A stretch of 64,000 nucleotides of DNA, taken from the IMG/VR virus record IMGVR_UViG_3300010399_000034, positions 22,807 through 86,806 of that record; one strand, written 5' to 3'. Position numbers and translations under genes: made by a program. Of the stretch, positions 7,507-39,720 are shown piece after piece (position 1 is the stretch's first letter; every line of letters starts with the position of its first letter). The notes beneath the pieces are model-generated. The model did not search any database, had not been told where the DNA came from, and was given only the letters and a program-made list of their open reading frames with translations. The stretch comes from a virus.

Positions 7507-7901
7507 AAGACTATCAATGCGTCTACGACGTCAGCTTCAAGCTCTGGCACCTCACGCAGCGACAAGCCGATCCGCCGAGTAAGACCGAACCGTGGTGCTG
7601 GACGAGCTGCTACGTTGTGGCGATCCCGAAGCACGGCTACGAGAAGCGCCGGCCGACGTGCGAAGAGTGCCTTGGCCACGTCACGAAGTTCGAACGCACC
7701 GGCGAAGCGGGCAAGACGCCAGAGCAGATCAATCGAGAGAACGGCCTCGGCTTCCAGGGCGCCAAGCAGTACAAGATGGTGCCACCAGGCGAGCTCGCGT
7801 CAGTTGCTTCGGAGCTATGGCTTGGGGGTGTAGAAGATCAGCTCGACGCGCTCTTCGTTGGCCGCACGAGTCGACGTGCTAGACTTGCAAGACGGCGATG
7901 A
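7503..7901 (+). CDS. Hypothetical protein with Cys/His motif
   Basis: GTGA coupling; WH...WC...C...TCEEC. Confidence 0.5.
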   Translation: MKDYQCVYDVSFKLWHLTQRQADPPSKTEPWCWTSCYVVAIPKHGYEKRRPTCEECLGHVTKFERTGEAGKTPEQINRENGLGFQGAKQYKMVPPGELASVASELWLGGVEDQLDALFVGRTSRRARLARRR

Positions 7902-10750: not shown

Positions 10751-10771
10751 CCCCCAAAGCCATAGCTCCAA
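10751..10771. repeat. 21-bp exact inverted copy of 30967..30987
   Basis: cccccaaagccatagctccaa is the reverse complement of ttggagctatggctttggggg. Confidence 0.95.
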
Positions 10772-10780
10772 ACCCGCGCC

Positions 10781-19694: not shown

Positions 19695-19707
19695 TTGTAA
19701 GGGTTCC

Positions 19708-19971
19708 ATGGAAGGCGGAACGGCGAGTAGGACGGTGTGGATCGAGCGGAGCAAGGTCTACCCCGCTCCCGGCTCGAACCCGCGCTATCAATGGCGCTGG
19801 ATCTACCGCCTCCGTTGCGAGGGTTTCACCGGCCCGACCTGGACTATGCCGGACGGCCGCTCGGGTGCAGTGTCCTTCGAAGGGCAGACCCTCAGCACCA
19901 TCCGCCAAACGGCGGCGAAGATCGCTCGCGAGCACGGCGCGGCCGTCCGCGAAGCATGGAAGGAAGGCTGA
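19708..19971 (+). CDS. Hypothetical early protein
   Basis: First rightward ORF after the control region. Confidence 0.55.
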   Translation: MEGGTASRTVWIERSKVYPAPGSNPRYQWRWIYRLRCEGFTGPTWTMPDGRSGAVSFEGQTLSTIRQTAAKIAREHGAAVREAWKEG

Positions 19972-19973
19972 TC

Positions 19974-20624: not shown

Positions 20625-20700
20625 TCTTCGCGTTCGCTCCGGCGCACGAGTCCTACTCGTGCTCCGCGTGAGACTGCGAAGTCTGAAGGGAAGGGTTTCA

Positions 20701-21126: not shown

Positions 21127-21128
21127 TC

Positions 21129-21431
21129 ATGGACTGGAAACAACGACACACCGAAGCTATGCGCGCTCCGCGTGGACGCGAGCTCGCGATCGTCCGCATG
21201 CTGCAAGCGTGGGAGCTGTACCGCGAGCAGCACCGACAAGCCTACGAATCCGGGATCGGAGATGACGGCGTGCTCGGGCCCGAATGGGCGGCAATCGGTT
21301 TCGCGATCCGCGGACTCCTGAACGGAGATTGCGGACGCTTGGACTGCGGCACGATCGACGGCGGGATCTGCGACGCGCTTACCGCCGAGGGCTTCGATCC
21401 GTACATCGAGGGCGAACGTCTACCGCGTTGA
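21129..21431 (+). CDS. Hypothetical protein
   Basis: GIGDDGVLG..W...LLNGDCGRLDCGTID. Confidence 0.65.
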   Translation: MDWKQRHTEAMRAPRGRELAIVRMLQAWELYREQHRQAYESGIGDDGVLGPEWAAIGFAIRGLLNGDCGRLDCGTIDGGICDALTAEGFDPYIEGERLPR

Positions 21432-21482
21432 ATCTGGCCGCTAGGCGCTGAGTCATGCTCGGCGCCGTGCGAGCGGAGTCAA
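21428..21482 (+). repeat. Intergenic conserved hairpin, copy E
   Basis: TTGAAT-CT-GGCCGCTAG-[GCGCTGAG/CTCGGCGC]-CGTGCGAGCG-G-AGTCAA. Confidence 0.85.
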
Positions 21483-21501
21483 CAACAGAAGGGAAGGGTG
21501 C

Positions 21502-21939
21502 ATGAACGAGCGAGATCTCCCGCGCACGCCGCGCAAGCGGCCGCGCCGAACGGTCGAGAAGAAGCTGCGCGAGCTTCGCGCGGACGAGGTTACGTTCACG
21601 CTCGAGATCGAGCCGGAATGCGAGCCGTATGTCGGGAACTGCTCGGCGATCGATCCCGAGACGGATCGCGAGCAAGAGGACTGGATCCGGCGCGAGCTCG
21701 ACGCCGGCAACGTCGCCGCATGGTGCTCGGTTGTCGTGCGAGCCACATGGGAAACGCCTACCGGCCGCACGATCGTCGGGATCGCTTCCCTTGGCGCGTG
21801 CTCCTACCGCAGCGTCATGGAGATCCGCCGCGAGCTGTATCCAGAGATGTGCGAGAACGCTCTCGACGATCTCAATCGCTCGATCGGAGCAATCTTCGAT
21901 TCCGCGGATGCGCTCCGCAACGCGTTGAAAGAGGTCTAG
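21502..21939 (+). CDS. Hypothetical early protein
   Basis: GGGAAGGG RBS; AWCSVVVRA...LGACSY. Confidence 0.7.
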   Translation: MNERDLPRTPRKRPRRTVEKKLRELRADEVTFTLEIEPECEPYVGNCSAIDPETDREQEDWIRRELDAGNVAAWCSVVVRATWETPTGRTIVGIASLGACSYRSVMEIRRELYPEMCENALDDLNRSIGAIFDSADALRNALKEV

Positions 21940-21941
21940 CC

Positions 21942-22217
21942 GTGCACCTTACAATCTACGCGCGCAAATCCGAGAACGAGCGGCCGAAGGACCGGCCGAT
22001 CCACGTCCGGAAGCACGGCGCGTTCGCGACGTCTGCGGGCGGAGGGCCGTCGTACCCGGCGACCGTATCGCTCCGCTTCGAGCTCGAAGAAGAAGCGAAA
22101 TGGGGCCATCCCGTCGTCTGGATCAGTAACATGTCCGCGGATGAAGCGGCCGAGCTCGGGAGCATGCTGCTCAACGCAGCCGATCGCGCTCGCGCGCTCG
22201 CACGAGGGGAGAAGTAG
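21942..22217 (+). CDS. Hypothetical protein
   Basis: GAGG RBS with GTG start. Confidence 0.5.
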   Translation: MHLTIYARKSENERPKDRPIHVRKHGAFATSAGGGPSYPATVSLRFELEEEAKWGHPVVWISNMSADEAAELGSMLLNAADRARALARGEK

Positions 22218-22219
22218 CC

Positions 22220-22612
22220 ATGGATCGCAACGCTGCTGATTACGATCGATACCACGGGCCGGACGCGCGGGAGAAGCCCGCTACGATCAAGGTCGAGATC
22301 GAGATCGACGAATCAGAGGTCATGGCGTGCATCGAGTCCGCGCTCGGGAGTCACACCTACGGGATCGGCTACTGGGGCGAAGTGAAGTACGGAGAACACG
22401 CGACGTGCGTCCGCGAGCGCGAAGACGAGGAGGATCCCGAAGTGCCGGGACCCTGGCGCGCACTCGACGATGCTGCGATCAAGCGTGGTCTCGCCGTGCT
22501 CGCGAGGATTCAACCCAAGCTCTTCGGACGATTGCTCGCCGGACAGGGCGATGGACCGCTCGGCGATCTCTTGATCCAGTGCGCGCTATTCGGAGAGGAG
22601 CGTTACGGATGA
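22220..22612 (+). CDS. Conserved phage hypothetical protein
   Basis: GIGYWG...GDLLIQCALFGEERYG. Confidence 0.7.
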   Translation: MDRNAADYDRYHGPDAREKPATIKVEIEIDESEVMACIESALGSHTYGIGYWGEVKYGEHATCVREREDEEDPEVPGPWRALDDAAIKRGLAVLARIQPKLFGRLLAGQGDGPLGDLLIQCALFGEERYG

Positions 22613-22839
22613 GCCGGAAGATCGTTCACACGATGAGCGACGGAACGAGGATCGAGCTCGAACGCGAGGCGTACGTCTCCGTCATTGCAACAGACGCGCG
22701 CAGCGCGCTCGCGTTCTTCGGATTCCGCCCTGGCGAAGCGTGGGCGGTCGACGCCGGCCCGCCGGCCGATCCGCACCGCTGGAAGCCGAACGCGCGCCGC
22801 TGGCACGTGTACCGCAACAAGGGGGACATGCCGTCATGA
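22609..22839 (+). CDS. Hypothetical protein
   Basis: ATGA-coupled. Confidence 0.5.
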   Translation: MSRKIVHTMSDGTRIELEREAYVSVIATDARSALAFFGFRPGEAWAVDAGPPADPHRWKPNARRWHVYRNKGDMPS

Positions 22840-23045
22840 ACACGCTCCCGCCGCGCCGAGCTACGTTCGGACGCTGCCACGCGTGCAAGGTGATCTGGCG
22901 CTGGCCGAGTCACAAATACGCCCGTGTGCGCGATGCGCACTGCCCGCGATGCGGCACCAAGCTCGCACGGACTGCCGAAGCGCTCGTGAAGCGCATTCCC
23001 GTTGTCGATGGAACGCCAACCTTTCGCCGGAGCATGCTCGGATGA
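22836..23045 (+). CDS. Zn-ribbon protein
   Basis: CHAC...CPRCG. Confidence 0.55.
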   Translation: MNTLPPRRATFGRCHACKVIWRWPSHKYARVRDAHCPRCGTKLARTAEALVKRIPVVDGTPTFRRSMLG

Positions 23046-23290
23046 AAGACGAAGATCGCAGACCGCTCGCGCAGATCGCGCGTAGCATCGAGCTCCGCCG
23101 CGCCGAGATCCTCTTTCCCGGAGGTGGAGCCGGGCCCGAAGGCGATGCGTCACGAGACGCATCGGAGTGTCCGCTCGCCGAGCAGCACTATCTGCTCGCG
23201 CTGAGCGCGCTCGAACAAGCCGAACGCCATTTCCTCCTTGCTGCGACGTTCGCCACACGCGCGATCGCGGAGAAGCAGGGCCGTCGATGA
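23042..23290 (+). CDS. Hypothetical protein
   Basis: ATGA-coupled. Confidence 0.5.
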   Translation: MKDEDRRPLAQIARSIELRRAEILFPGGGAGPEGDASRDASECPLAEQHYLLALSALEQAERHFLLAATFATRAIAEKQGRR

Positions 23291-23496
23291 AGGTGACTGC
23301 TGAAGGCATCGAGCTGACCGGCGATGAAGTCGCTACCGCGATCGACGCCTATCTCGTGGCGCACAACGTTCACGTGAGCGGGCCGCGCACGATCCGCGTC
23401 AATGGCGAGCTGTGCAAGACCGGGCTCGTCTACGTAGACCCATCGGGGTTCGTCAACTACGACGGAGAGATCTTCCGGACCATGAGGCAACGATGA
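23287..23496 (+). CDS. Hypothetical protein
   Basis: IELTGDEVATAIDAYL...VYVDPSGFV. Confidence 0.6.
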   Translation: MKVTAEGIELTGDEVATAIDAYLVAHNVHVSGPRTIRVNGELCKTGLVYVDPSGFVNYDGEIFRTMRQR

Positions 23497-23741
23497 CAAT
23501 CTGGCTTGCATGGGACCACGAGCACCACGTCGGGCGCGGTGGAGTCCTCGAGATCTTCGCCTCGCGCGAAGCGGCGCTGCGCTTCCTTCAGGAGCGCGTT
23601 GCCGTCCTCGTGGACTCGTGCGGCTTCGAGCTCGAATACGCGCGAAGCGAATGGCGCCTCGCTGAAGCGGAGCTTCAGTCGTCGGGACGATACGTCTTTC
23701 CGAGCGCCGTCATGCCTGGAGCATGGGCCTCGTCCGGTTGA
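23493..23741 (+). CDS. Hypothetical protein
   Basis: ATGA-coupled. Confidence 0.5.
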   Translation: MTIWLAWDHEHHVGRGGVLEIFASREAALRFLQERVAVLVDSCGFELEYARSEWRLAEAELQSSGRYVFPSAVMPGAWASSG

Positions 23742-23772
23742 GCACCACGCACCCACGTTGTACGCTCGAGGC

Positions 23773-24408
23773 GTGCCCTGCACATACTATCCGCCCGTTG
23801 CGCCCGGACTCGGCCGACTGAGCTCGCGCTACGGCGTGCGGCCTGCGCGCCGGCCTCCACACGCGCCGACGTTCCACGCGGGGATCGACATCTCGATCCC
23901 TGGCCATCGGCCCGGCGAGGTTCCCGTCTACTCGGTCGCGGATGCGCTTGTCGAGCGTCTGCCGCTCCATACGACGCGCAGAGGCCCGTTCGACGGCTAC
24001 GGGAACGCTGTCGTCCTGAAGCACATCGGCTCGGCCGATGCGGGCTTCTGGACGTTCTATTGCCACCTGGACCACCACGCGCCGTACATGCAGCAGTTTC
24101 TCGGAACGCAGCGCGTGCTGCCTGCCGGATCGGTGGTCGGGTTCGTTGGTAACACGACGAACGACAAGTTTCCGGGGATGCACTGGCACCTCCATTTCGA
24201 GGTGCGTCACGCGACGCGTGCAGGCGCCTCGCCGCTCCCGGGACCGTATCAGGTCTACAACGACGACCCGCAAGCGTGGTTGGCACAGCGCGGGATCACG
24301 TTCTCCGGCGCGAATATCGTGGTCGACGGGCAACGCGCATGCGTTCCTGTCTACGCGCTCTCGGACGCGTTGGTACGTCAAGCGCTCCTCGTGGGAGGTA
24401 ACGCGTGA
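23773..24408 (+). CDS. M23 family peptidase (peptidoglycan endopeptidase)
   Basis: HAGID (HxxxD), GYGNAV, YCHL, VGNT, HLHFE; start approximate. Confidence 0.9.
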   Translation: MPCTYYPPVAPGLGRLSSRYGVRPARRPPHAPTFHAGIDISIPGHRPGEVPVYSVADALVERLPLHTTRRGPFDGYGNAVVLKHIGSADAGFWTFYCHLDHHAPYMQQFLGTQRVLPAGSVVGFVGNTTNDKFPGMHWHLHFEVRHATRAGASPLPGPYQVYNDDPQAWLAQRGITFSGANIVVDGQRACVPVYALSDALVRQALLVGGNA

Positions 24409-24545
24409 ATCCCGAATACGAGCCCGTGATGGACGATCCGGATCTCGCCGTCAGCTTCGACTGGAAGGTGTTCGGTCTCGCGCTCGTTGGGGGCGTGAGC
24501 GTGCTCGGCCTCGGTTACGGATTGTGGCTCGCTTTCCGGAGGTAA
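24405..24545 (+). CDS. Small protein with C-terminal TM and basic end
   Basis: ...VFGLALVGGVSVLGLGYGLWLAFRR. Confidence 0.6.
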   Translation: MNPEYEPVMDDPDLAVSFDWKVFGLALVGGVSVLGLGYGLWLAFRR

Positions 24546-24548
24546 CCC

Positions 24549-24824
24549 GTGAGCGAACGAGCGAAGGCGATGATCGAGCTCGTAGAGCGCGACTCGTGGG
24601 ACGATCTCGATCCGGCAGAGCGCGCCGTGTTCGGCGAATGGCTGCGCGAGATCGTCTACAACCCGACGACAGGCAAGATGGAGCAGCACCTCGCCGAGGG
24701 ACACGACCTCTATCTGCTGCTGCGCTCCGCGTGGCGGAAGTGGACGCGCAAGGTACGCACCTCGAGCTCGCAAACGTTCCAGTCGATCAAGGACACGCCG
24801 AAGCTGCCTGACGACGAGAAGTGA
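24549..24824 (+). CDS. Hypothetical protein
   Basis: GGAGG RBS. Confidence 0.55.
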   Translation: MSERAKAMIELVERDSWDDLDPAERAVFGEWLREIVYNPTTGKMEQHLAEGHDLYLLLRSAWRKWTRKVRTSSSQTFQSIKDTPKLPDDEK

Positions 24825-24831
24825 GCGTTGC

Positions 24832-25056
24832 GTGAAGCCGCGCTTCCTATTTCGCAGCGCACGACGTGCGAAGGACAGCTCGCCAACGGTGCGGATCAAC
24901 CTGACGAATACGAAGCTCGAAGCCGCGGATAAACTGGCGCTTCGGATCGCCGACTACTTCAACGCGCCACCGGATTCGGCTGAACGTGCAATCGCACGTG
25001 ACCGCGTGCTTCTCGCACTCGAGAACTATCACGAGCTCCGCCGAACGCCCGGCTAG
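24832..25056 (+). CDS. Hypothetical protein (LEAAD helix family)
   Basis: LEAADKLA...LALENY. Confidence 0.5.
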   Translation: MKPRFLFRSARRAKDSSPTVRINLTNTKLEAADKLALRIADYFNAPPDSAERAIARDRVLLALENYHELRRTPG

Positions 25057-25889
25057 AGCACGACGAACGGGCGGATCTCGTCGATCACTTCGAGCGCGTA
25101 CGCGTGCTTGAAGCGAAAGAAGTGTTTGCCCGCCCAGAAGCGGATGTGGTTACAGCCCACGCCAGTCGCGCTCGCGATCGCCTTCATCATCGCGTCGTGC
25201 GGTGGCAGGTTGGTGAAGCGCTGATGGTAAGCTGCGTGCCCCGAGACGATGCGCTGCTTCGGGAAGCGCTCGCGCGCGAGAAGGATCGATTCACGCGGGT
25301 AGCGATCGGGGCCGAGCGGCCCGAACGCTGGGACCGCCTGCCCGTCGTGCGATGCGACCGCGTAGTTCTGTGAGACGAGCACATCGGCGAGCTTCACGAG
25401 CTCGGCCGCGCTGGAATAGGCGCTCGGGAAGACGGTGACCTCGGTGCGCACGCCCGGCTTTCGTAGAACGCGCATCGTGTCCGCCGCCGCTTCGCCGAGC
25501 GTCGCGTAGCCGACCAGAAACTTCTTCGCCCATTTGCCGGCGGGTTCCGCATCGGCCTCGATTGCGATCGGCTTGAGCGCGTCGGCAAGCTCCATGATCT
25601 TCGCCTCGAGCTCGGCGATCGGATGCTTCTGCGCGGGTGTCCACACCGTCATGATCCGATCGTGCGCCGGGAACGCAGCGAAGAACTCTTTCAACTGTGC
25701 GGCGCTCCAACGCGCGTCCTTGATCCCTGGCTTGGGCCCGTCGACCATGACGGCGAGCTCGCGGAACGGGAGCGCGTGGATCGCGTCGATGTACGCCGGC
25801 TTGAGGACGTCGTGCGGAGGATCATCGATCCAAACTCCGAGCTTCAACGGACCGCACTGCACGAGCGCCTCTTTCAACACGCCGTCCAT
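25053..25889 (-). CDS. Putative glycoside-hydrolase-like (TIM barrel) protein
   Basis: beta/alpha pattern with IEADAE acidic motif and SQNY; weak call. Confidence 0.45.
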   Translation of the reverse strand: MDGVLKEALVQCGPLKLGVWIDDPPHDVLKPAYIDAIHALPFRELAVMVDGPKPGIKDARWSAAQLKEFFAAFPAHDRIMTVWTPAQKHPIAELEAKIMELADALKPIAIEADAEPAGKWAKKFLVGYATLGEAAADTMRVLRKPGVRTEVTVFPSAYSSAAELVKLADVLVSQNYAVASHDGQAVPAFGPLGPDRYPRESILLARERFPKQRIVSGHAAYHQRFTNLPPHDAMMKAIASATGVGCNHIRFWAGKHFFRFKHAYALEVIDEIRPFVVL

Positions 25890-26125
25890 GCCCCGCTCTC
25901 GTCTTTCTGGAGGACGACTTCGTAGCGTCCACCTACCGCAGCGTCTTCGACAACGAAAGCCACATGCGCGCAATCGACGTGGCCGTCTGGGCAGCTCTCC
26001 GCGCTGCCGAACTCGTTGCAGTACAAAGTCGCCAGCCGGACCAACGCCTCGTTGAGCGCTTCGTCCGTGTGAAGACTACGAGCTAGGGCCTGCCGTGGGT
26101 ACTCTTCAGCAAACCAGATGCGCAT
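25874..26125 (-). CDS. Hypothetical protein
   Basis: Coupled ORF starting MRIWF. Confidence 0.45.
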   Translation of the reverse strand: MRIWFAEEYPRQALARSLHTDEALNEALVRLATLYCNEFGSAESCPDGHVDCAHVAFVVEDAAVGGRYEVVLQKDESGAWTAC

Positions 26126-26742
26126 CACCGCCTCCAGATCATCCAGCCGAGCCAGCCGAGCATGCCCACGATGCCGACCGTGCCGATGATCGCAGCGACG
26201 CGGCTCGGCGGATCGGTTGGAAGAAGGTGAACGCCGAAGATCTGCTGCTCGAGACGACGAGCCCACGTGCGGCTTCCTTCGCGCGTGAAGTGCACGCCGT
26301 CTTGTGTGTGCGGAAGATCGGCAGTCATCGCACCGCCGTCGATCCAGTCGAAGCCGAGCTGTCCGCTCATCACACGCTGCTGCGCGTCGACTTCGCGCTT
26401 GCGCGTCTGGATCTCTGGCACGCTCGAATGCGCCGGTCCTACCCAGACGATCCGTGGCGTGCCGTACGTACGAAGCTGCGCGACGACGAGCCGGATCTTG
26501 TCGCGTAGCGCGTCGACCGGCATGTCGTTTCCGCCGAGCACGACGACGACGAAGCTCGGCCGACCTTGCACGACGTCGACCGCGGCACGTGTCGCAGCGA
26601 AGCGCGACGTGCTCCACCCGACGTTGCCGATGTAGCCGTCGAGTGCAAAGCCGTGCGCAGCGAAGAACTCGCGCAGATGCGGCTCGAGCCCCACGGCTTG
26701 CGAATCGCCGATCAACGCCCAGGTGTGTGCGACGTCGCTCAT
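26125..26742 (-). CDS. SGNH/GDSL hydrolase with C-terminal TM anchor
   Basis: GDS, GGND, DGVH blocks; ends with a TM segment and RR. Confidence 0.85.
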   Translation of the reverse strand: MSDVAHTWALIGDSQAVGLEPHLREFFAAHGFALDGYIGNVGWSTSRFAATRAAVDVVQGRPSFVVVVLGGNDMPVDALRDKIRLVVAQLRTYGTPRIVWVGPAHSSVPEIQTRKREVDAQQRVMSGQLGFDWIDGGAMTADLPHTQDGVHFTREGSRTWARRLEQQIFGVHLLPTDPPSRVAAIIGTVGIVGMLGWLGWMIWRR

Positions 26743-26954
26743 GTTTCCTCTGGAAGCGGCAACGGAGTGAAGACTTCGTCGGCTTTGCTCAACGCCTCTC
26801 GACGCGTATCCCATAACCCGATCCGAAGAAGCGCGGCTCCGGGCGGACGCGGCTTCGGCCCGTCCACGCCGAGATGGAACGTGTTCCCGTGCTGATAAAC
26901 GAGCACGGTAAAGGGCCCATAGCTCTTTGCCTGGATCGGCTTCGTGAGCGACAT
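26739..26954 (-). CDS. Hypothetical protein
   Basis: Coupled ORF. Confidence 0.45.
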   Translation of the reverse strand: MSLTKPIQAKSYGPFTVLVYQHGNTFHLGVDGPKPRPPGAALLRIGLWDTRREALSKADEVFTPLPLPEET

Positions 26955-26957
26955 GCT

Positions 26958-27218
26958 TCAGTCCTTCGGAGGCGGCGCGTAGCCGACGAACTTCACAGCG
27001 CCGCCACAAGCACAACGCGCATCCGTCGCCCGCCTGAAAGTCGTTCCAACGAGGATGTCCGTGACACCACCAAGCCGCGCTCCGCACTTCTCGCACTTCC
27101 AGAACGAGCCCCACTTCGCCTGGAAGGCGTCACGCTGCCGCTTCAACGCAGCACGTTGCGCAGCACGCATCTGCTCGGACAGCTCCACCACACGCGCATC
27201 GAGCTCGGCTTGATTCAT
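26958..27218 (-). CDS. Zn-ribbon protein
   Basis: CEKCG...CACGG. Confidence 0.55.
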   Translation of the reverse strand: MNQAELDARVVELSEQMRAAQRAALKRQRDAFQAKWGSFWKCEKCGARLGGVTDILVGTTFRRATDARCACGGAVKFVGYAPPPKD

Positions 27219-27829
27219 CGGTGCCTCCAGATGAACCAAGCTGCCGTACCGAAGACCGCGAGTCCAGCGACGAAGCCGCCAACGACGTACGGCCAGGTGC
27301 TCGGTCCGAGCGCGACGTAGTTGTTCGGCCAGCGCGCCGATTCGGGCGTGATGATGTAGCAGCAGCCAACGAGCTGCGAGCCAGGATGCGCGGCAACGTA
27401 TTCCCGCGCACGATCGCCGACGGCGAAGTTGACCACGCGAGGAACAGGATTGGCGAGCGATCCCTTGCTCAGTGCAGCAATCGCCGCCTTCACGTCGGCG
27501 CTGAACGTCGCCGGATCGCGCGAGCTCATCTCTTCGCGTCGATCGAGCAGACGCTCGGCACAGTCCGGAGTGCCGTAGCCGCTTCCACCCGTCGCGCACT
27601 TGTCCCCGCCACGCATCCATCGCGGATTGACCGGCTGGCTGAACGCGCGAACGAAGCTCGTCAGCGTCGGAAATGTGTGCCTGAACGCGGGCAGCGAGAA
27701 GCGCTGAAGCATCGCCCAGATGACGGCTCGCGGGTCGCCCCCTTCGCCCTGCGCCGCACGACCGAGCCAGAGGAGATCTTCCGCTGTGATCTCGTAGTCC
27801 TTCTTCCCGTCGATGTAGAGCGCCGTCAC
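27215..27829 (-). CDS. Putative cell-wall hydrolase (SleB-like) with C-terminal TM anchor
   Basis: LLWLGRAAQGEG...AVIWAMLQR...FSQP; TM segment and RHR at the end. Confidence 0.55.
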   Translation of the reverse strand: MTALYIDGKKDYEITAEDLLWLGRAAQGEGGDPRAVIWAMLQRFSLPAFRHTFPTLTSFVRAFSQPVNPRWMRGGDKCATGGSGYGTPDCAERLLDRREEMSSRDPATFSADVKAAIAALSKGSLANPVPRVVNFAVGDRAREYVAAHPGSQLVGCCYIITPESARWPNNYVALGPSTWPYVVGGFVAGLAVFGTAAWFIWRHR

Positions 27830-27925: not shown

Positions 27926-29410
27926 TCAGAGATGCGACTCGAGAATGTACGCAGTGATGTCGTCGACATCGCCAGGAGAGAGGATGAACGCCTCCCAGTT
28001 CGGATCGCCGAAGGCACGCAGTGCGAGCGCGACTTGTTCGCTGCCGACCGCCACCGCGTCGACCTGATCGTGCACGGTCGCTTCCACATTGTCGTGCAAG
28101 AAGCGCTGCCGATGCGAGACGCCGCGCAGGGTCGCGATCATGAACTGTGGAAGCGCAACGCCTGGCGACAAGCCGCACGAGGCGGGGACCTCGCCACACG
28201 GATCCCCGGTGCGCAGCGGACGCCCCGGATCATGCGCGTGGATAACGAACTCACCTGCGGGCGTCGCGAAGCGGTACGTGCGGAAGGGCAGCTCGGCCGT
28301 CGGTTGCAGCCCGCCCATCGCCGACGTGCGGTGAAGGCAGACTAGGCCGACGCCCGGGTAGTCGATAGGACCCTCCATGTCGACGTACGGCGCGCAGGTC
28401 CCGCTCGGACCAGGGGGCTGTCCGTTCGAACACGGGCATCCACCAGACGGGAGCGGCGGATACGGCGGCTGAAGCGGGTTGAACGGTGAAGTACGCATCA
28501 TCATCGGACCGCCGTGGCAGCTCGCGCAGAAGCCACGATGCGCCATGTCCGTGCTCAACATGGGTTGCTCGATCAAGAACTCGCGACCGCGCAGACACGC
28601 TGCCGTCGCGTGCGGAGGGCACTCCGGCGGACCGGGCTCCGCGCCACCACGCGCCATCTCCGCGAGCTCGGGCGAGCTGAAGAGCGAACGCTGGAAGTTC
28701 GCGATGTCCGTTCGCTGCTGAGCGGTGAACGGGATCGTCGGCTGGAAGTGATCGTTGAGCGCGCTCCCAGCTTGATGCGCAAGCTCGAGCTCCCGCCCAT
28801 CCCACATGATCCCGCCTCCGCGGTGATAGCCGAGCGGCGCGGTGCCGGGCTCCTTGAGCGCGACATTCAAGACGTGCGGTGAGGAGCGCCGTACGATCAC
28901 CTGGATACGGCCGTCGGGCAGCATGGTGATGTCGGGGTCGGTCCCGAGCTCGTCCACCGTAACGTTCGGCGGCAGGATGACCGGGATGCGGATGAGCGCG
29001 TGATCACGCAACACCGAGAAGTCGGCGCCCACGCCATCGTTCGAATCGATCGACCTGAAGAGTGGGTCCGTCGGGTCGACTGCAAAGACGGCTTGCGCAA
29101 ACTCGTCGCTCAGATCGAACGTCGCGTGCTCCTGGACGAAGTGTGCCCCAGTCAACGCAGCGAGAAGCGGCGGCTGCCCTTCCATGATCCCGGTTCGATA
29201 ACCGATGTTGAATGCACGCTCGACGGTCGTATGACACGACGCGCACGCGCGTCCATTCGTCCCGGGAGGCGAGTTATTGAAGAGCGCCCGTCCTCTCGCG
29301 ATGCTCGCCAGCATCGACAGGTCGAGATCAGCCTCCGTACGATCGACAGGACCCGGATCCGCACAACCGCAAATCAACGCAGCTACTAGTGTCAACAAGA
29401 CTTGTCGCAT
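27926..29410 (-). CDS. Di-heme c-type cytochrome lipoprotein (CCP/MauG-like)
   Basis: Lipobox ICGC; two CASCH motifs; GRALF, MWDGR, TLRGV...FLHD. Confidence 0.8.
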   Translation of the reverse strand: MRQVLLTLVAALICGCADPGPVDRTEADLDLSMLASIARGRALFNNSPPGTNGRACASCHTTVERAFNIGYRTGIMEGQPPLLAALTGAHFVQEHATFDLSDEFAQAVFAVDPTDPLFRSIDSNDGVGADFSVLRDHALIRIPVILPPNVTVDELGTDPDITMLPDGRIQVIVRRSSPHVLNVALKEPGTAPLGYHRGGGIMWDGRELELAHQAGSALNDHFQPTIPFTAQQRTDIANFQRSLFSSPELAEMARGGAEPGPPECPPHATAACLRGREFLIEQPMLSTDMAHRGFCASCHGGPMMMRTSPFNPLQPPYPPLPSGGCPCSNGQPPGPSGTCAPYVDMEGPIDYPGVGLVCLHRTSAMGGLQPTAELPFRTYRFATPAGEFVIHAHDPGRPLRTGDPCGEVPASCGLSPGVALPQFMIATLRGVSHRQRFLHDNVEATVHDQVDAVAVGSEQVALALRAFGDPNWEAFILSPGDVDDITAYILESHL

Positions 29411-29739: not shown

Positions 29740-30167
29740 CAGCCCATCTCTCCATTCAGCTTCGCGCGGAGGGCTTCGAGTGCATCGTCAAGCTCCAGCC
29801 TGGCCATCGACGCGTCGCGGCGGCCATCGCGCACCTCCACCGCCGCCCGCACGACGGCGACGATCTCAGCGTGAGCTCTCTCGTAAGCGCCTCGAGCGAT
29901 GGCCTGATGAAAAACGTCGGCCATCGTGCCGGTGCTCGACAGTCCGGCGAGCCAACACGCAATCGGATCAGGCATGGGACCAGCGGACTCGACGTGACTC
30001 GCTTTGACGGCAAGGCCCGCAACATCCACGCGCGGTCCGTAGCACACGGCAGCGATTGACTCGGCGCGTACGCAGCGACACGGGTGTGTGGCGCTGACGT
30101 CGGAAACGAAGCCGCGTCCGCAACACCACAAGCACTTGCTATCGACCGTGAGGATGTGGCGTGTCAT
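29739..30167 (-). CDS. Hypothetical protein with Zn-finger
   Basis: CLWCCGRG...PCRC. Confidence 0.5.
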   Translation of the reverse strand: MTRHILTVDSKCLWCCGRGFVSDVSATHPCRCVRAESIAAVCYGPRVDVAGLAVKASHVESAGPMPDPIACWLAGLSSTGTMADVFHQAIARGAYERAHAEIVAVVRAAVEVRDGRRDASMARLELDDALEALRAKLNGEMG

Positions 30168-30652
30168 CCGTACGCCCCGCTGAGCCAGACATCGAGCTCA
30201 GGCTCTACGAGCACGAAGCGATCGTCGAGATGGCGCTCGAGGATTGGAAGCACGTCGGCCTTGCGAAGACGCCCATTGCCGCAGCCAACGAGCGGCAGAG
30301 CGACAGAGGAGCCGTCCAGCGTGAGCGCCGCGAGCTGGCGCGCCGAGCGTTCGATGAGCTCGAGCGAGCTGTCCTGCCGCCACGACAAGAACGGAAACTG
30401 CGTGACGAGTGGCTTAGTCGGGAAGAAGATCATGTCGGATACGCCAATCGTCACAGGCGTCTCTTCGCCGCCACGCATGCACTCGCGCCCCCACCACGTC
30501 TCGTAATCGTACGAGCCCAAATCGCAGAGCTGCTTCGCGATGCCGCGGCCCATGACGGCCTTGCCGTTGCGGCGCCACCCGATGTTGACCGGGATCACGC
30601 GGTACTTGCAGCCGTGCTCTTCCGCCCAGAGATCGCTGTAGACGTGCCGCAT
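30164..30652 (-). CDS. Macro-domain (ADP-ribose binding/hydrolase) protein
   Basis: N...AVMGRGIAKQ, FFPTK, WRQDSSLELI, ALPLVGCGNG. Confidence 0.8.
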   Translation of the reverse strand: MRHVYSDLWAEEHGCKYRVIPVNIGWRRNGKAVMGRGIAKQLCDLGSYDYETWWGRECMRGGEETPVTIGVSDMIFFPTKPLVTQFPFLSWRQDSSLELIERSARQLAALTLDGSSVALPLVGCGNGRLRKADVLPILERHLDDRFVLVEPELDVWLSGAYG

Positions 30653-30846
30653 CACTTCGGCTCGACGCACGGCTCGAACCGCTTCTCGAACACGTCTTGT
30701 CGAATCTTCGTCTTCCGTTGCGTTCCGACGCGCGCCACAACGACGTAGCGCTGACTCGCACGTTCGTGTCTGAAGCCGACAACCTTGACGATTCTGTGTT
30801 CGCGCTTGTCCTTGTCGCGATACAGCTGTCCAACCTCGATCTTCAT
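30652..30846 (-). CDS. Small SH3-like hypothetical protein
   Basis: IEVGQLYRDKDKR...KRFE. Confidence 0.55.
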   Translation of the reverse strand: MKIEVGQLYRDKDKREHRIVKVVGFRHERASQRYVVVARVGTQRKTKIRQDVFEKRFEPCVEPK

Positions 30847-30881
30847 CGCGGCACCGCCCTTCCAACGCCGCTTACAATACG

Positions 30882-30988
30882 AGAAAGGAAGAGGCCCGTC
30901 CAGCATTGTTTACTGTGCGGGCCTCACAGCGGGATCGAGCACGCTCGTCCCGGCCAAGTCAGTGGCTTGGAGCTATGGCTTTGGGGGT
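30882..30988 (-). ncRNA. Putative small RNA: 5' 21-nt guide-like segment, three hairpins and terminator
   Basis: -10 TAGTCT at 30995-31000; hairpins CCAAG/CTTGG, GGGACGAGC/GCTCGATCCC and GAGGCCCG/CGGGCCTC followed by TTCCTTTCT. Confidence 0.55.
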
Positions 30989-31005
30989 CTTGCAAGACTA
31001 GCGCA

Positions 31006-31584
31006 TCAAGACGGGTCTGCCAACGCGTATCCCGTGTTCAACGTTCCGCGGCAAACGAGCGGCACGAGTCCGTGCGCGAGCGCGTTCGCGTGATCCTCCG
31101 CCGAGCCCCATGTGAATACTGCGCCGTCACAGGGCTCGAGCCGAAGTCGCCCAGTGACAAGCCGAAGCGAAACAGTACGGATCTGCTGCCAGCGACGCGT
31201 GAAGCGGCCCCACTCGAGATCTTCAGGCCAGCCTTCCGGCTGTGTGTCGTTGTCCTGCAAGTAGCGACTGTACCTACAGTTGCCTTGTGCTTCTTGTTCG
31301 CTCATCGGCCGATCGGTGAGCACGCACGACGAGTGCGCACGAAGCCACGCGAGTCGACTCTCGTCGGTGCGCGCTCTGTTTCGCGCGGCCTGCCAGATGA
31401 GGGCACAATCCTCTGGAGCTGCCGCAGAGAGGCTCGCCTCGTTCACGCATACGCGGCTCACTGCCAACGCAAGCTCGCGTTGCACTTCGTCTTGCGCATG
31501 CCCGTGCGGCGGTGATACGCAGAGACAGAGCTGCGGGACGATCAATGCAACGAGCAGCCAGAACCCGACTTCGAGCTTTTCCAT
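31006..31584 (-). CDS. Secreted putative cell-wall hydrolase-like protein
   Basis: Signal peptide; LAVSRVCVNEA...ALIWQAARNR resembles the SleB-like N-helix. Confidence 0.5.
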   Translation of the reverse strand: MEKLEVGFWLLVALIVPQLCLCVSPPHGHAQDEVQRELALAVSRVCVNEASLSAAAPEDCALIWQAARNRARTDESRLAWLRAHSSCVLTDRPMSEQEAQGNCRYSRYLQDNDTQPEGWPEDLEWGRFTRRWQQIRTVSLRLVTGRLRLEPCDGAVFTWGSAEDHANALAHGLVPLVCRGTLNTGYALADPS

Positions 31585-31627
31585 ACAACCCTCCAACCCG
31601 CCGTCGTAGGCGAATAGACGAGGGCGG

Positions 31628-31789
31628 TCAAGCTCGGCGACGTCGGGCGCGATCGCGATTCACGGTGGCGGCTGCGATTCGCTTACAGACGATCGCGGCT
31701 TTCTTCGTGCGGCGACGAGCGCGCTTACAAGACACGAGGATGTGCTTGTATTTGCGCTCGTCTTTTGCCGTCCACGAGCCGCGAGGCAT
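31628..31789 (-). CDS. Small basic protein (ChaB-like nucleic-acid binder)
   Basis: MPRGSWTAKDERKYKHI...RIAAATVN. Confidence 0.6.
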   Translation of the reverse strand: MPRGSWTAKDERKYKHILVSCKRARRRTKKAAIVCKRIAAATVNRDRARRRRA

Positions 31790-36870: not shown

Positions 36871-39720
36871 TCACACCGAATACCAGTCATCGCCGATCTT
36901 GGCGACGGCAGGAAATGGCATCGCATCTGCCCCAGGAACCAATGTTAGCTTCTGCGACATACAACGCTCGAGGAGCGCCGCGACCTTGTCGGCTTTGTGC
37001 TCGTCGCATTCAACGTAGATCGCGTCGTGGACCTGCGCGATGATGATCGCAGTCGGGTCGACGCTCGGAAGTTGATGCGCAAGTTCGAGCATCGAGAGGT
37101 TCATCATCGATGCGACCGTTGAGTTCTTGCTGATGATTCCTGCACTGTCGTAGCGGTGGAGGTCGTGCTGGACAGCAAGCGTGTACAAGTCTGCGCTTTC
37201 CTCGAGCTGACACACTGCCGCAACGGTCCCGGTCGAATAGAGCTCAGCGTCGCGCCAGTCACCAGCAGCCTCCGTCATACGCTGAAGCGTGTGCGGGTTC
37301 GTTGTACCGCCGTGCGCCAACCGAGACCAAAGCACGTACATGCTCCGCTCCGTGGCGTACGAGAACGGGTTTCGTGGGTAGGTTTCAAGAAACCGATCAC
37401 GCGCGGCACGACCAAGACGATCATCACGACTGAAACGTTGTCGATCCGTTGGATCGCCGTAAGCGAGCTGGCTCCGCAGCAGGGAGCCAGCGAAGTTCAG
37501 CCGCCACGCCATGTGTCCATCGCGATCGGAGACATACGGTCCGTCGATACGCGAGGTCACGCCGCAACTTCGTGCGAGCAGTTGCAGGTCACGAAGCAGC
37601 TCTAGGTTCGGCGTGTTGGAAGACGGCTGCCCCATAGACAGCGTTCCGTCAGCGTCCATGTAGCCGAGAAGGAACGCTTTTCGCGCCGACAAGCAAGCAC
37701 GCCAGATCGAATCTGGTACGCGTTTCGTCTTGGCACGCCAAGTCGGGTCAACCCCCCAGGAGGGGAGAAGCTGTCGAAGGCGACTATCTGCGGCCACGCT
37801 GATTGCCGTCAATGGTCCGTGAACCTGGGCCTTCCAGAGGCCGCCGTATTGTATCGCCCAGCGTGTAAAGGACGCAGCGTACTCGTCATGCGCGAAGCGT
37901 TTTACACGTGTACCGAAGCACCACACAAGTTGGTCTGTGGAGCCGGTTCGTTGCGACCACGACCCGTTTCCGATCCAATACCCGAGCCAGTACGCGTCGG
38001 CGTCATTGAAAGGGGCACCGAACTCCTGCGCTGAGGCAAGCGGCTGCGCAATACGGTCGCCTTCACGTAACTCTCCAACAGCGCGCCATTCGAACTCGAT
38101 TCCGTCGTCACGAAGCACGCGAAGATAGTGTTCTTCGTTCGTCTGAAGTACATGCCCGTTGGTGAGCTTCGTCTCCCATAGTTGCTCAGTCCGCTTTCCA
38201 AGCGTCATCGATGGAGCCCATTGATTTGGCGCGCCGAGCGACGCGGAGCACGTCGCATGTTCCACCGGGAGATAGCCTTCTGTTGTAAGAACGCGCGTCC
38301 CGCCTCGAACGCACTGCATCTTGTAGTTGTATACAACTGTCGCATCGATCAAGAGAAGCGGGAACTCGCGACGACGACCGATGAGCGCGTCGGTGACACG
38401 GCCAGTTCGCTTGGCTTCAGTGAGCTCGCGCTCGCGCCACGGCCGCACCGACGGGAACGCTTTGAAGATCGCGGCGAGGATCGTCTCGACCGTCGCGATG
38501 TCGATCGGCATGCCCTCGTAGCCGCCGTCGTAGATGGAGTTGAGGATCGTCTCCGACCCAGCGCCGTAGAAGCTGCCGTAGATGACGCGCTTCTCGAGAT
38601 CGCGCAGCGCTGACCGCGTCTTGTCGTCGGCCTTGAGGTAGCCGTCCTTGAACGCGATCGCGCTCACGTACGCGTGTGGGTCGCAGTCGGGCTCGTACTT
38701 GCGCGCTTCGTCAGCGTTGACGCAGAGCGAGATGAGCTTCTCGTCGCCGCAGAGCGCACCGAGCACGCGAAGCTCAGCCTGTCCGAGGTCGGCGCCGACG
38801 ATCTTGCGGCCCGGCGGCGCGACGATGCACTCGCGGATGCCGGGCACCTCGAGCGTGATCTTCCCTGGCTTCGCCTTCGCGAGGAAGATCTCGTCGCCAG
38901 GAAAGAGCGGAAGCTGCCATGGACCGCCGTGCGGTCGGCCCTTGCTGTCGAGTGCCTCGAAGATCGCAAGCATGAGAAGGATGCGCTTCCCCCAGTTCAT
39001 TAGGTTCGGCTCGCTGCTCCATCTCCCGGTCCTCGCACCGAGCGGCTTCCAACGCACGCGGATGCGCCAGTCCTGCGAGACCGGCATCCCCTCGATGTAC
39101 GTCGACTTGATCTTCTCCCAGCGACGATAGTCAAGGAGCAGATCGACGAACGGATGACCCTTGTAAGAGAGCAACGACGATTTATCTGTCGATGGCTGCC
39201 CTTGTGGATGCGTCTTGCTCGGGTCGGTGTACTTCATCGGAAGCAGCCGACACGGCCCGTTCTTGTCGTAGAGCGCCCACGCGAGCTGCGGAGGACTCGT
39301 AGGGCTAAAGTCTGGCCGACCCGTGAATGCACGCAGGAGCTCGACCGAACGCGCCATGTAGAAATCAGAACGCTGCGACCAGCGGATCCACCGTTCTCGA
39401 CTCACTGGCAAGCCGGCGCGCTCGACGTCCTTCGCGACGTGGAACATCCCGACGTCGAGGTCATGGACGAAGCGTGCGTTCTCTGCTTCGAGCTCGGTGA
39501 GCTGCGAGAGCATGGAGAGCGTCGTATTGTAAACGTCGCGACCGTTGTAAGCGAAGAGCTGCTCGTTCGACTCCCAGACCTGCTGCCCGCCCTTCTCCTT
39601 CGGCGGCTTCCACGGCGGCGTGTCGGTGTAGCAGCCGGCGATGTGTTGCAAGCGATGAGGCTCGTCGGGATGAACGGCGTTGTGCGCGATCTCGGTGTCG
39701 TAGACGTAGCCGCGAGTCAT
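36871..39720 (-). CDS. polA: Family A DNA polymerase (C-terminal half of the 3'-5' exonuclease plus polymerase), intein-containing
   Basis: TGRWSS.PNLMN; motif A DLGQAELR; motif B R...KRVIYG..YG (Tyr at the 762-equivalent); motif C VHD; Exo III YNGRD. Confidence 0.95.
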   Translation of the reverse strand: MTRGYVYDTEIAHNAVHPDEPHRLQHIAGCYTDTPPWKPPKEKGGQQVWESNEQLFAYNGRDVYNTTLSMLSQLTELEAENARFVHDLDVGMFHVAKDVERAGLPVSRERWIRWSQRSDFYMARSVELLRAFTGRPDFSPTSPPQLAWALYDKNGPCRLLPMKYTDPSKTHPQGQPSTDKSSLLSYKGHPFVDLLLDYRRWEKIKSTYIEGMPVSQDWRIRVRWKPLGARTGRWSSEPNLMNWGKRILLMLAIFEALDSKGRPHGGPWQLPLFPGDEIFLAKAKPGKITLEVPGIRECIVAPPGRKIVGADLGQAELRVLGALCGDEKLISLCVNADEARKYEPDCDPHAYVSAIAFKDGYLKADDKTRSALRDLEKRVIYGSFYGAGSETILNSIYDGGYEGMPIDIATVETILAAIFKAFPSVRPWRERELTEAKRTGRVTDALIGRRREFPLLLIDATVVYNYKMQCVRGGTRVLTTEGYLPVEHATCSASLGAPNQWAPSMTLGKRTEQLWETKLTNGHVLQTNEEHYLRVLRDDGIEFEWRAVGELREGDRIAQPLASAQEFGAPFNDADAYWLGYWIGNGSWSQRTGSTDQLVWCFGTRVKRFAHDEYAASFTRWAIQYGGLWKAQVHGPLTAISVAADSRLRQLLPSWGVDPTWRAKTKRVPDSIWRACLSARKAFLLGYMDADGTLSMGQPSSNTPNLELLRDLQLLARSCGVTSRIDGPYVSDRDGHMAWRLNFAGSLLRSQLAYGDPTDRQRFSRDDRLGRAARDRFLETYPRNPFSYATERSMYVLWSRLAHGGTTNPHTLQRMTEAAGDWRDAELYSTGTVAAVCQLEESADLYTLAVQHDLHRYDSAGIISKNSTVASMMNLSMLELAHQLPSVDPTAIIIAQVHDAIYVECDEHKADKVAALLERCMSQKLTLVPGADAMPFPAVAKIGDDWYSV
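37123..38313 (-). mobile_element. Intein with LAGLIDADG homing endonuclease in PolA (397 aa)
   Basis: NYKMQ|CVRGGTRV...IISKN|S; TNEEH block B; WLGYWIGNG and FLLGYMDADG. Confidence 0.9.

Follow-up and report, generated by a model that had tools for sequence, protein, structure and literature searches.

A probable structured small RNA of a virus, with a 5' end complementary to two distant sites in the same genome

Introduction

In a viral genome of 86,806 bp, a 21-nt sequence that closely follows a promoter-like element on the minus strand recurs exactly, in inverted orientation, in a distant intergenic spacer. The locus raises the question of what such a match is for, and whether it belongs to the DNA or to an RNA transcribed from it. 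The preliminary description of the window (the whole 64,000-nt stretch that was analysed, to which positions refer) proposed a guide RNA or a trans-antisense sRNA and, alternatively, a pair of inversion sites. The virus appears to be a large virus of soil or groundwater, with a host possibly among the Myxococcota. To our knowledge, few phage-encoded RNAs regulate the genes of the phage itself; those treated in the available portion of a 2025 review are mostly cis-antisense RNAs or RNAs acting within one operon (PMC12197685).

Three copies of one repeat

The reported match between two sites holds exactly at both: the 21-mer lies at 10751-10771 on the plus strand (copy B) and at 30967-30987 on the minus strand (copy A). 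A search of the window at three or fewer mismatches returned three matches, and any match at all was found in 0 of 100 dinucleotide-preserving shuffles. An inverted-repeat search delimits the A/B pair as 24-nt arms that are 96% complementary; the sole mismatch in this pairing sets an RNA G opposite a target U, so that the position still pairs. The third copy, which the preliminary description did not contain, is a degenerate one at 7799-7829 on the minus strand (copy C). Copies C and A agree at 28 of 31 aligned positions, being separated by two 1-nt indels and a single mismatch, and copy C continues for 10 nt past the 21-mer. At four or fewer edits these three are the only copies in the whole genome. 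All of them start at, or 1 nt from, the predicted RNA start described below, and none extends upstream of it.

A protein-coding origin of the repeat is ruled out, since the nucleotide-level likeness of copies A and C crosses two 1-nt indels that change the reading frame. ARAGORN detected no tRNA or tmRNA attachment core in the whole window.

A predicted small RNA behind a promoter-like element

The features around copy A, all on the minus strand, are as follows.

31006-31596: upstream gene, a conserved family of 192-196 aa with a predicted signal-peptide-like N-terminus
31018-31023: -35-like TTGGCA within the last codons of the upstream gene, read from the sequence
30995-31000: -10-like TAGTCT of the TANNNT type; TAGNNT is invariant in the three-way alignment A3
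30880-30988: predicted small RNA of about 105 nt, with a putative start at A 30988 and a putative 3' end near 30880-30890
30964-30987: 5' targeting segment (RNA nt 2-25), mostly unpaired; the exact 21-mer, or 24 nt with one G.U
30954-30970: helix 1, a hairpin of 5 bp that shares positions with the 3' part of the targeting segment
30930-30952: helix 2, a 9-bp bulged hairpin of nearly invariant sequence
30891-30925: helix 3, a terminator-like hairpin rich in GC, with a pyrimidine-rich tail after it at 30880-30890

The element is probably a conserved structured small RNA with its own promoter within the end of the upstream gene; transcript and ends are both deduced from sequence. The TAGTCT, the 6 nt that separate it from A 30988, the hairpins with a GC-rich hairpin and pyrimidine tail running down to about 30880, and a TATTGT further downstream are all present as first described. 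The TTGGCA and TAGTCT are spaced by 17 nt, and the pattern TTGNNN-N17-TAGNNT occurs once in the 86.8-kb genome, at this position; the putative RNA start lies 17 nt past the stop codon of the upstream gene. The promoter-like pair agrees with the sigma-70 consensus at 8 of 12 positions and was not called by a consensus sigma-70 promoter scan. Helix 3 was missed by the terminator scan because its loop is long and its tail has no T run; that scans call neither promoter nor terminator, with a tail that is pyrimidine-rich and free of a U run, is an observation that sits less well with an antisense RNA.

The 113-nt minus-strand stretch folds better than shuffled sequences (z -3.0; 1 of 200 shuffles as good), and the full 159-nt intergenic stretch folds no better than its shuffles (z -1.2). 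Covariance model R1 scores 115 bits at the locus, which is single-copy in the genome; no paralogue was found with this model in the whole genome, the next match (61064-61157, 15.7 bits, E 0.026) lying inside a gene. Rfam gave no match in the whole window at gathering thresholds. At E <= 10 over 30800-31100 it gave only two weak and unrelated matches, CRISPR-DR23 (23.2 bits against a threshold of 45, inside the upstream gene) and CC2171 (11.7 bits against 75), the phage C4-type antisense RNA families being absent.

Conservation and covariation in relatives

A covariance model and a search of related viruses had been suggested as a check, and the element with its promoter-like geometry does recur, with compensatory changes, in two groundwater relatives, L022 (111 bits with R1) and L024 (85.5 bits). 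The upstream TTG-N3-N17-TAGNNT-N6-A and the three helices are found in all three sequences. In L022 a TTG placed 1 nt later in the frame is offset by a spacer after the stop codon that is 1 nt longer, so that the 17-nt spacing is kept. In the three-sequence alignment 62 of 63 pair cells are paired (98.4%), 4 of 22 pairs are changed on both sides, and the covariation score was reached by 3 of 500 shuffles; sliding the partners by one column lowers pairing to 52-53%. Three of the five pairs of helix 1 are changed on both sides, helix 2 is paired in 100% of cells and includes one A-U to G-C double change, and the eight outer pairs of helix 3 are kept in all three sequences, two of them through G.U changes. 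The first 12 nt are predicted to be largely unpaired throughout, with mean unpaired probabilities of 0.87 in the window, 0.77 in L022 and 0.91 in L024.

Conservation is uneven along the element. Between the window and L022, helix 2 and its linker are identical at 35 of 37 positions and the 5' 18 nt at 12 of 18, against 69-76% nucleotide identity for the neighbouring gene. The neighbouring protein is 63-64% identical to that of the window in L022 and L020 and 49% in L024. No complement to the 5' end of either L022 or L024 occurs in the five contigs L020-L024, which is uninformative because these contigs are so short (about 1 kb each).

The family of the upstream gene comprises 36 proteins at E <= 0.001, including that of the window. 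Synteny around this gene extends to L020, L022 and L024, closer homologues (P0005, P0018 and P0031) are encoded on contigs of 75-82 kb, and the RNA element is absent from the more distant relatives L013-L018 and L023. Other neighbours of the RNA vary among relatives, the apparently exported 196-aa protein excepted. In L022 the terminator is directly followed by an inserted helix-turn-helix (HTH) gene, behind which the 3' half of the terminator and the downstream TATTGT and RBS stretch occur again as a duplicate.

Wider searches returned nothing closer. Blastn with 30400-31700 against GenBank phages gave no match. Against phage records and IMG/VR, a degenerate 17-mer gave five loci, all low-GC or unrelated chance matches, and the 196-aa protein alone gave none. 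A macro-domain gene used as query recovered seven loci that share that gene only, and the protein alignment A2 recovered seven distant loci (28-49% identity), all without the RNA element. A 30-nt scaffold pattern had no match, a looser gapped pattern gave four loci, none of which fits model R1, and a scan of genome contigs for relatives gave one weak and unrelated locus.

Two distant sites at the borders of a convergent module

Copies B and C, read as targets of the RNA, are placed as follows.

10751-10774, minus strand: site B, a complement of 24 nt within the 51-nt spacer that separates genes 10781-11014 and 10364-10729
10364-10729, minus strand: first gene downstream of site B, an acidic protein of 121 aa supported by GC frame plot
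7799-7829, plus-strand mRNA: site C, a 31-nt near-complement in the 3' end of gene 7473-7901
7898-8308, plus strand: gene downstream of site C, a STAS/SpoIIAA-like protein of 136 aa (Atlas model, pTM 0.79)

Site B, as first reported, stops just short of the AAAGG ribosome-binding site, on its 5' side, and 21 nt ahead of the ATG at 10729; gene 10364-10729 heads the last minus-strand gene run, which ends at 8269. About 68 nt separate site C from the downstream ATG of gene 7898-8308, an ATG that overlaps the stop codon of gene 7473-7901. The two sites, 20 and 23 kb from the RNA and on opposite-strand operons, bracket a 2.9-kb module in which these operons converge. Neither target gene has a Pfam or PHROG match, and a fold lead from the Atlas is confined to 7898-8308, whose nearest clusters are STAS/SEC14 or SpoIIAA-like and most often from Myxococcota; the Atlas model of 10364-10729 is of low confidence.

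Each predicted duplex has an energy of -55.3 kcal/mol, with 24 contiguous pairs at site B; cofolding, after the monomer structures are paid for, yields net gains of -33 kcal/mol at B and -29.5 kcal/mol at C. In a duplex scan of the whole genome with RNA nt 1-36, 7785-7834 (+) and 10741-10790 (-) rank at the top, behind the RNA's own antisense strand; the next best site reaches -36.8 kcal/mol, on a background with mean -16.2 and standard deviation 4.6. Frame plots and the STAS-like fold indicate that the genes at both distant sites are real, and each site is in sense with its gene, an arrangement with a chance of 1/4.

A trans-acting antisense RNA as the favoured reading

The evidence tips modestly towards a trans-acting antisense sRNA directed at the virus's own genes. 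This reading builds on the observed complementarity, strand sense, conservation and covariation, and it is the best fit, since each distant site is on the transcribed strand of its gene. An accessible 5' region complementary to the sense strand of distant mRNAs, together with a structure that has compensatory changes (on three sequences), is what characterizes trans-acting sRNAs. Of the initial guide or trans-antisense proposal, the 5' targeting segment, structured body and terminator-like hairpin are supported, and the antisense option is the favoured one; the Cas, IscB or TnpB type of effector is not supported.

An RNA of about 105 nt would be made from the region 3' of the 196-aa gene, with an unpaired C-rich 5' end and three hairpins, the last of them serving as terminator. 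Its 5' end would pair in trans with the leader just upstream of the RBS of gene 10364-10729 (24 bp), and with the 3' end of 7473-7901, ahead of the translationally coupled 7898-8308 (about 29 bp, with two bulges and one mismatch). Since the sites lie at both entrances of the convergent module, one RNA could control the distal genes of both operons post-transcriptionally. The analysis leans towards repression as the outcome, in which the long duplexes would be cleaved by a double-strand RNase and the downstream genes uncoupled. Activation at site B is possible through opening of a weak hairpin that covers the RBS; this leader hairpin is no more stable than its shuffles (z -1.6). If real, the arrangement would clearly exemplify RNA wiring over a long range, linking the replication block to the ends of two other operons, and it offers a clean pair of predicted targets for a virus without a cultured host.

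Some features sit less easily with an antisense function. A perfect match of 21-24 nt exceeds what is usual for a trans-encoded sRNA, and conservation is lower in the 5' end than in the scaffold, the opposite of what classical seed-type sRNAs show. The absence of the element from L013-L018 and L023, whose upstream genes are more distantly related, also counts against it. The inverted copies around 2.9 kb, with a recombinase 3 kb off, also fit a reading at the level of DNA.

Relation to known regulatory RNAs

The c4 antisense repressor RNA of phages P1 and P7, reportedly described by Citron and Schuster in 1990, and the CI immunity RNA of satellite phage P4 are structured phage RNAs that pair with two sites on their own transcripts. 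Their structure is conserved and their recognition sequences differ between related phages; they are processed from the target operon, their targets lie within a few hundred nucleotides, and recognition is by internal loops. The predicted RNA resembles them as a small structured viral RNA with two complementary sites on the virus's own transcripts and a structure better conserved than its recognition sequence, but it is apparently a primary transcript, it would recognize its targets through its 5' end, and these lie 20 and 23 kb away on opposite-strand operons.

Bacterial sRNAs of the DapZ, MicL and RybB type have a promoter within or at the end of an upstream coding sequence, a terminator shared with it, and an unpaired 5' seed followed by hairpins; the seed is 7-16 nt long, imperfect and usually the most conserved part. 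The viral element is similar in its putative promoter in the end of an upstream gene, in a terminator-like hairpin that the two would have in common, and in a predicted unpaired 5' end before hairpins, but its match covers 24-31 nt, its 5' end is less conserved than its scaffold, and it belongs to a virus without Hfq or ProQ (no match to either in the virus genome).

The sar RNA of phage P22 is transcribed opposite its target. Excerpts of the review mentioned above list sar as trans in a table and give lambda OOP RNA as a cis-encoded RNA through which cII mRNA is degraded by way of RNase III (PMC12197685). Like OOP and sar, which in those excerpts repress a regulatory gene, the predicted RNA is a short viral RNA with a long perfect duplex on a viral mRNA. 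The complementarity of OOP comes from overlapping transcription, whereas here it is kept in trans between distant loci.

Alternative explanations

The three copies may instead be DNA sites for a viral protein, either crossover sites of a tyrosine recombinase or centromere-like or operator sites of a ParB-like protein, an explanation that is considered unlikely. The recombinase noted between copies A and B is indeed there, as ORF 13764-15002 (Pfam Phage_integrase, E 6e-8). Inversion by it would turn over 7830-10750 or 10772-30966, and the setting of copy A within an RNA would then be incidental. Inverted repeats with a recombinase nearby are a feature of DNA inversion systems of the Gin/Hin or Rci shufflon type, and this recombinase, of the tyrosine family, lies 3 kb from B; it and a ParB ORF (11828-12736) fall within 1-3 kb of that copy. 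Copies C and B are inverted around 2.9 kb and copies B and A around 20 kb, and an inversion between C and B would keep all genes in sense orientation, swapping the module between the converging operons. The repeat itself argues otherwise. By inspection, dyad symmetry in the 24-mer is limited to a 10-nt core with two mismatches, unlike in tyrosine-recombinase cores or in parS, a palindromic or boxed site that usually neighbours parB; the repeat boundary coincides with the predicted RNA 5' end, copy A is embedded in a covarying RNA, and the equivalent 18 nt in L022 differ at six positions.

The inversion alternative also gained nothing from contigs of two DNA runs compared with 7400-27399, which covers copies B and C. 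The 86.7-kb contig of the source run is colinear across this interval, although contigs can miss rare forms, and none of the seven listed joints, whose sides are only 20-24 letters long, falls at 7799-7829 or 10751-10774. The second run (X2) holds low-depth fragments of a relative and, among the rows listed, nothing at either repeat. A transposon with terminal inverted repeats spanning 7830-10750 was rejected: inspection by eye showed no flanking direct repeat, and the scanned ORFs (those other than 9413-10078 and 9649-10029 for PHROGs, and other than 9649-10029 for Pfam) yielded no transposase family.

It is likewise improbable that the repeats are functionless scars, left by an inverted duplication or by a template switch that copied 24-31 nt, or that they served as short boundaries in modular recombination; the hairpins at copy A would then simply be the terminator and 3' UTR of the upstream gene. 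The junction does recombine, as seen in L022 with its HTH gene insertion and duplicated terminator half, TATTGT and RBS stretch, and copy C is degenerate. Relatives, however, differ by about 25-30% at the nucleotide level, so that exact identity over 21 nt means a copy that is either very recent or under selection. Scars would also have to share one sharp boundary at the predicted transcript start in all three copies, and both distant copies would have to be sense-pairing, at comparable positions ahead of the distal genes of two operons.

A true programmable guide is held to be very doubtful. The conserved scaffold would serve to bind an unrecognised viral or host protein, and the faster-evolving 5' segment would direct it to RNA or DNA at both module borders, B and C. 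Such a complex could act as a gate for transcripts entering the module at either end, or it could steer a DNA transaction, for example recombinase-mediated inversion, to the two inverted sites. The contrast between scaffold (35 of 37) and 5' end (12 of 18) points to a sequence constraint beyond the needs of base-pairing, and the matches, at 21-31 nt and beginning at the RNA 5' end, are guide-like; the comparison involves only three sequences, however, with 5' ends that are related to each other. The suggested effector of Cas, IscB or TnpB type did not materialize: the virus genome has no RRXRR (IscB) or Piwi match, its best match to the TnpB zinc ribbon (Cas12f1-like_TNB) reaches 16.8 bits against a cut-off of 26.3 in a 156-aa frame, and Pfam scans of 39 ORFs (40 queries, one ORF being scanned twice) yielded no Cas-like or RuvC/HNH effector. 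The single copy of the RNA, outside any array, and the turnover of its neighbours between relatives, except for the apparently exported protein, argue in the same direction.

The pattern of conserved scaffold and variable 5' end leaves room for a protein-assisted, retargetable mechanism, and a programmable guide, if true, would amount to RNA-guided self-regulation that belongs to neither CRISPR nor OMEGA. Like the Cas9 single-guide or tracr-crRNA and the omega RNA of IscB, the element has a 5' segment (about 20 nt) that precedes a conserved structured scaffold and a terminator-like hairpin. It differs from them in lacking a recognisable effector gene and a repeat array; its scaffold is much shorter than omega RNA, and its targets lie in its own genome, on the sense strand of mRNAs.

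The repeat and its three copies

The preliminary description reported an exact 21-mer match between 30967-30987 (-) and 10751-10771 (+), which is borne out; none of 100 shuffles contained any 21-mer match at three or fewer mismatches. The repeat arms reach 24 nt and are 96% complementary, the sole mismatch forming a G.U pair at the RNA level. A third copy, overlooked in that description, lies at 7799-7829 (-) and is identical to the copy at 30967-30987 at 28 of 31 aligned positions, with two 1-nt indels and one mismatch, and extends 10 nt past the 21-mer; because this similarity spans two indels that shift the reading frame, it reflects conservation at the nucleotide level. The whole genome contains only these three copies. 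All three start at, or 1 nt off, the RNA start predicted by the TAGNNT box, and none reaches upstream of it. The three places are:

30967-30987, minus strand: copy A, at the 5' end of the predicted sRNA (about 105 nt, 30880..30988)
10751..10774, minus strand: site B, within the 51 nt that separate gene 10781-11014 from gene 10364-10729, with the AAAGG ribosome-binding site immediately 3' of it
7799..7829, plus strand: site C, in the last 100 nt of gene 7473-7901, whose stop overlaps the ATG of 7898-8308

The sequence also agrees with the local anatomy described earlier: TAGTCT at 30995-31000, 6 nt to the A at 30988, hairpins, a pyrimidine tail and a downstream TATTGT at the sRNA locus, and AAAGG within the 21 nt between site B and the 10729 ATG.

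Predicted pairing targets

When nucleotides 1-36 of the RNA were scanned for duplexes against both strands of the whole genome, the best partners besides its own antisense were plus-strand RNA 7785-7834 and minus-strand RNA 10741-10790, each at -55.3 kcal/mol, against -36.8 for the runner-up and a background mean of -16.2 (sd 4.6). When 100-160 nt around each target are cofolded with the RNA, the net gain is -33 kcal/mol at site B and -29.5 at site C. The RNA would pair with sense mRNA in both cases, which favours the antisense half of the earlier proposal of a guide RNA or trans-antisense sRNA. Sites B and C bracket 7830-10750, where the two operons converge. Gene 7898-8308 encodes a STAS/SpoIIAA-like protein (Atlas pTM 0.79); a competing minus-strand ORF, 7838-8173, was set aside, the strand being settled for 7898-8308 (+) by this Atlas model.

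A conserved RNA element downstream of the 31006-31596 gene

The ORF upstream of the element, 31006-31596, encodes a member of a protein family for which 36 sequences are found at E <= 0.001, the window's own included. Scanning with an alignment of 35 of these (P0024 left out) found distant relatives in IMG/VR (28-49% identity) and, in metagenomes, short contigs from a groundwater study, of which L020 and L022 share 63-64% identity and L024 49%. The same element lies directly 3' of the homologue in L022 and L024. In the window and both relatives it consists of TTG-N3, a 17-nt spacer, TAGNNT, 6 nt, A, and a C-rich stretch predicted to be unpaired, followed by a 5-bp hairpin, a bulged 9-bp hairpin, a short linker, and a GC-rich hairpin with a pyrimidine-rich tail.

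In the three-sequence alignment, standard pairs occupy 62 of 63 pair cells and both-sided changes occur in 4 of 22 pairs; the covariation score is reached by 3 of 500 shuffles, and sliding the partners by one column lowers pairing to 52-53%. The covariance model R1 gives 115, 111, and 85.5 bits for the elements of the window, L022, and L024 and finds nothing further credible in the window, 13 related loci, or the whole genome; two Rfam searches gave no credible match. The element is absent beside the upstream gene's more distant relatives. Given this distribution, the element is conserved at the RNA level within a sub-clade and is linked to the upstream gene's 3' side.

The genes beyond the element differ: in the window a 64-aa gene precedes a macro-domain gene, in L022 an inserted HTH gene and a duplicated terminator half precede the macro-domain gene, and L024 has a different gene. 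In the stretch 555-900 of L022, this small, XRE-like HTH gene is inserted immediately after the sRNA terminator, and second copies of the terminator 3' half, TATTGT box, and ribosome-binding site lie between it and the macro-domain gene; this looks like a gene cassette gained via short-homology recombination at the junction. The window's macro-domain-like gene (30164-30652, minus strand; Pfam E 0.0018, below cut-off) has homologues at 44-48% identity in seven otherwise unrelated IMG/VR contigs and appears to be a mobile accessory gene.

Promoter-like and terminator-like features

The promoter-like geometry is identical in all three sequences; in L022 the position of the TTG in the reading frame is 1 nt later, and the post-stop spacer is 1 nt longer, so that the 17-nt distance is kept. 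TTGNNN-N17-TAGNNT occurs once in the genome, at the sRNA site (shuffle mean 4). On the other side, a sigma-70 consensus scan of the locus called neither a promoter nor a terminator. The transcript, its ends, and any regulatory effect are inferred; without a separate promoter, the sRNA sequence would still form the upstream gene's 3' UTR, from which it could act once processed.

A perfect 12-bp palindrome (30989-31000) overlaps the predicted -10 box and start, and a 15-nt near-copy with one difference (7879-7893) lies 4 nt upstream of the STAS-like ATG, some 50 nt from site C. The count for the degenerate pattern (two found, 0.19 expected) is circular, as the pattern was built from both copies; L022 does not conserve the palindrome. 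An operator common to the sRNA promoter and the STAS gene is one possibility.

Proposed regulation by antisense pairing

The most economical reading, to which we give somewhat better than an even chance, has the sRNA acting in trans as an antisense RNA: transcribed from within the replication-gene block, it would regulate distal genes of the two other operons. The 24-29 bp duplexes it would form are substrates for double-strand-specific RNases. Cutting at site C would leave the STAS-like gene uncoupled or destabilised, and cutting at B would affect the six distal minus-strand genes. The leader at B can also adopt a structure in which the ribosome-binding site is paired with part of the target, and sRNA pairing there could therefore activate translation instead; this modelled structure does not fold better than shuffles (z -1.6).

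The sRNA would belong to the known class of phage-encoded base-pairing sRNAs, and it matches no Rfam family tested. The closest functional analogues appear to be phage antisense regulators: the c4 RNA of P1/P7, the CI RNA of P4, OOP, and sar. OOP and sar are described as such in a 2025 review, in which the lambda OOP/cII duplex is acted on by a double-strand-specific RNase (PMC12197685). In contrast to all four, this sRNA is encoded 20-23 kb from its two predicted targets, recognition would be by its 5' end, and two operons on opposite strands would be targeted.

Alternative readings

The repeats are unlikely to be protein sites, such as crossover sites for a tyrosine recombinase. The copies are inverted around 2.9 kb and 20 kb, a tyrosine recombinase lies 3 kb away, and C-B inversion would swap a module between the two operons; however, the inversion put forward in the preliminary description finds no joint at 7799-7829 or 10751-10774 in contigs over 7400-27399. 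There the source run includes one colinear 86.7-kb contig, although rare or minority forms may escape contigs, and none of the seven joints listed from the source and second soil runs, all with short sides of 20-24 letters, touches either repeat. The repeat also shows no dyad symmetry, and copy A lies within a covarying RNA. That the repeats are non-functional scars has a similarly small chance.

A scaffold with a protein partner and the 5' segment as guide is quite improbable. Between the window and L022, helix 2 and its linker are identical at 35 of 37 positions, the 5' 18 nt at 12 and helix 1 at 11 of 17, while the neighbouring gene is 69-76% identical at the nucleotide level; the 5' end thus drifts at about the background rate, and sequence constraint on the scaffold exceeds the needs of pairing. 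A conserved scaffold with a more variable 5' segment is part of what the preliminary description would look for in a programmable RNA; here it is seen on three sequences. A conserved structure with differing recognition sequences is also known from the c4 RNAs of the heteroimmune phages P1 and P7. The pattern hints at a protein partner, but six-frame genome searches found no match to RRXRR, Piwi, Hfq, or ProQ and, for the TnpB family zinc ribbon, only a sub-threshold match (16.8 bits, cut-off 26.3); 40 Pfam queries covering 39 ORFs, one of them twice, turned up no nuclease-like effector. These searches give no support to an effector of the Cas, IscB or TnpB type, and the preliminary description had recognised none. 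The Cas12f1-like/TnpB match at 22848-22970 (+), within a 156-aa open frame, is probably just a zinc ribbon.

Genome setting

The virus record is 86,806 bp with direct terminal repeats, and the window (its bases 22807-86806) has a GC content of about 62%. GC3-based ORF selection and frame plots give this layout:

up to 8308, plus strand: genes
about 19434 down to 8269, minus strand: genes
19737-24824, plus strand: genes
about 61704 down to 25053, minus strand: long gene block

Pfam identifies a family A DNA polymerase with a LAGLIDADG insert, a UDG-family protein, a DUF3987 protein, a ParB-like protein, a tyrosine recombinase, a radical SAM enzyme, a UDP-GlcNAc 2-epimerase, a D12 methyltransferase, and a di-haem cytochrome c peroxidase-like protein. 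The LAGLIDADG-like domain (residues 699-761 of the 968-aa polymerase ORF, 36871-39777, minus strand) suggests an intein or inserted homing endonuclease. A 494-aa ORF (27926-29410, minus strand) weakly matches di-haem cytochrome c peroxidase/MauG and cytochrome c families, an unusual viral auxiliary gene. Atlas clusters nearest the STAS/SpoIIAA-like protein (7898-8308, plus strand) are mostly from Myxococcota, a lead to a Myxococcota-like host drawn from the neighbours of this one protein. A second soil metagenome run (2012) contains low-depth contigs of 200-280 nt from a related strain on 7400-27399, some identical across 277 nt and others with 21-26 differences per approximately 210-255 nt; this lineage of virus is thus present in a second, independent sample.
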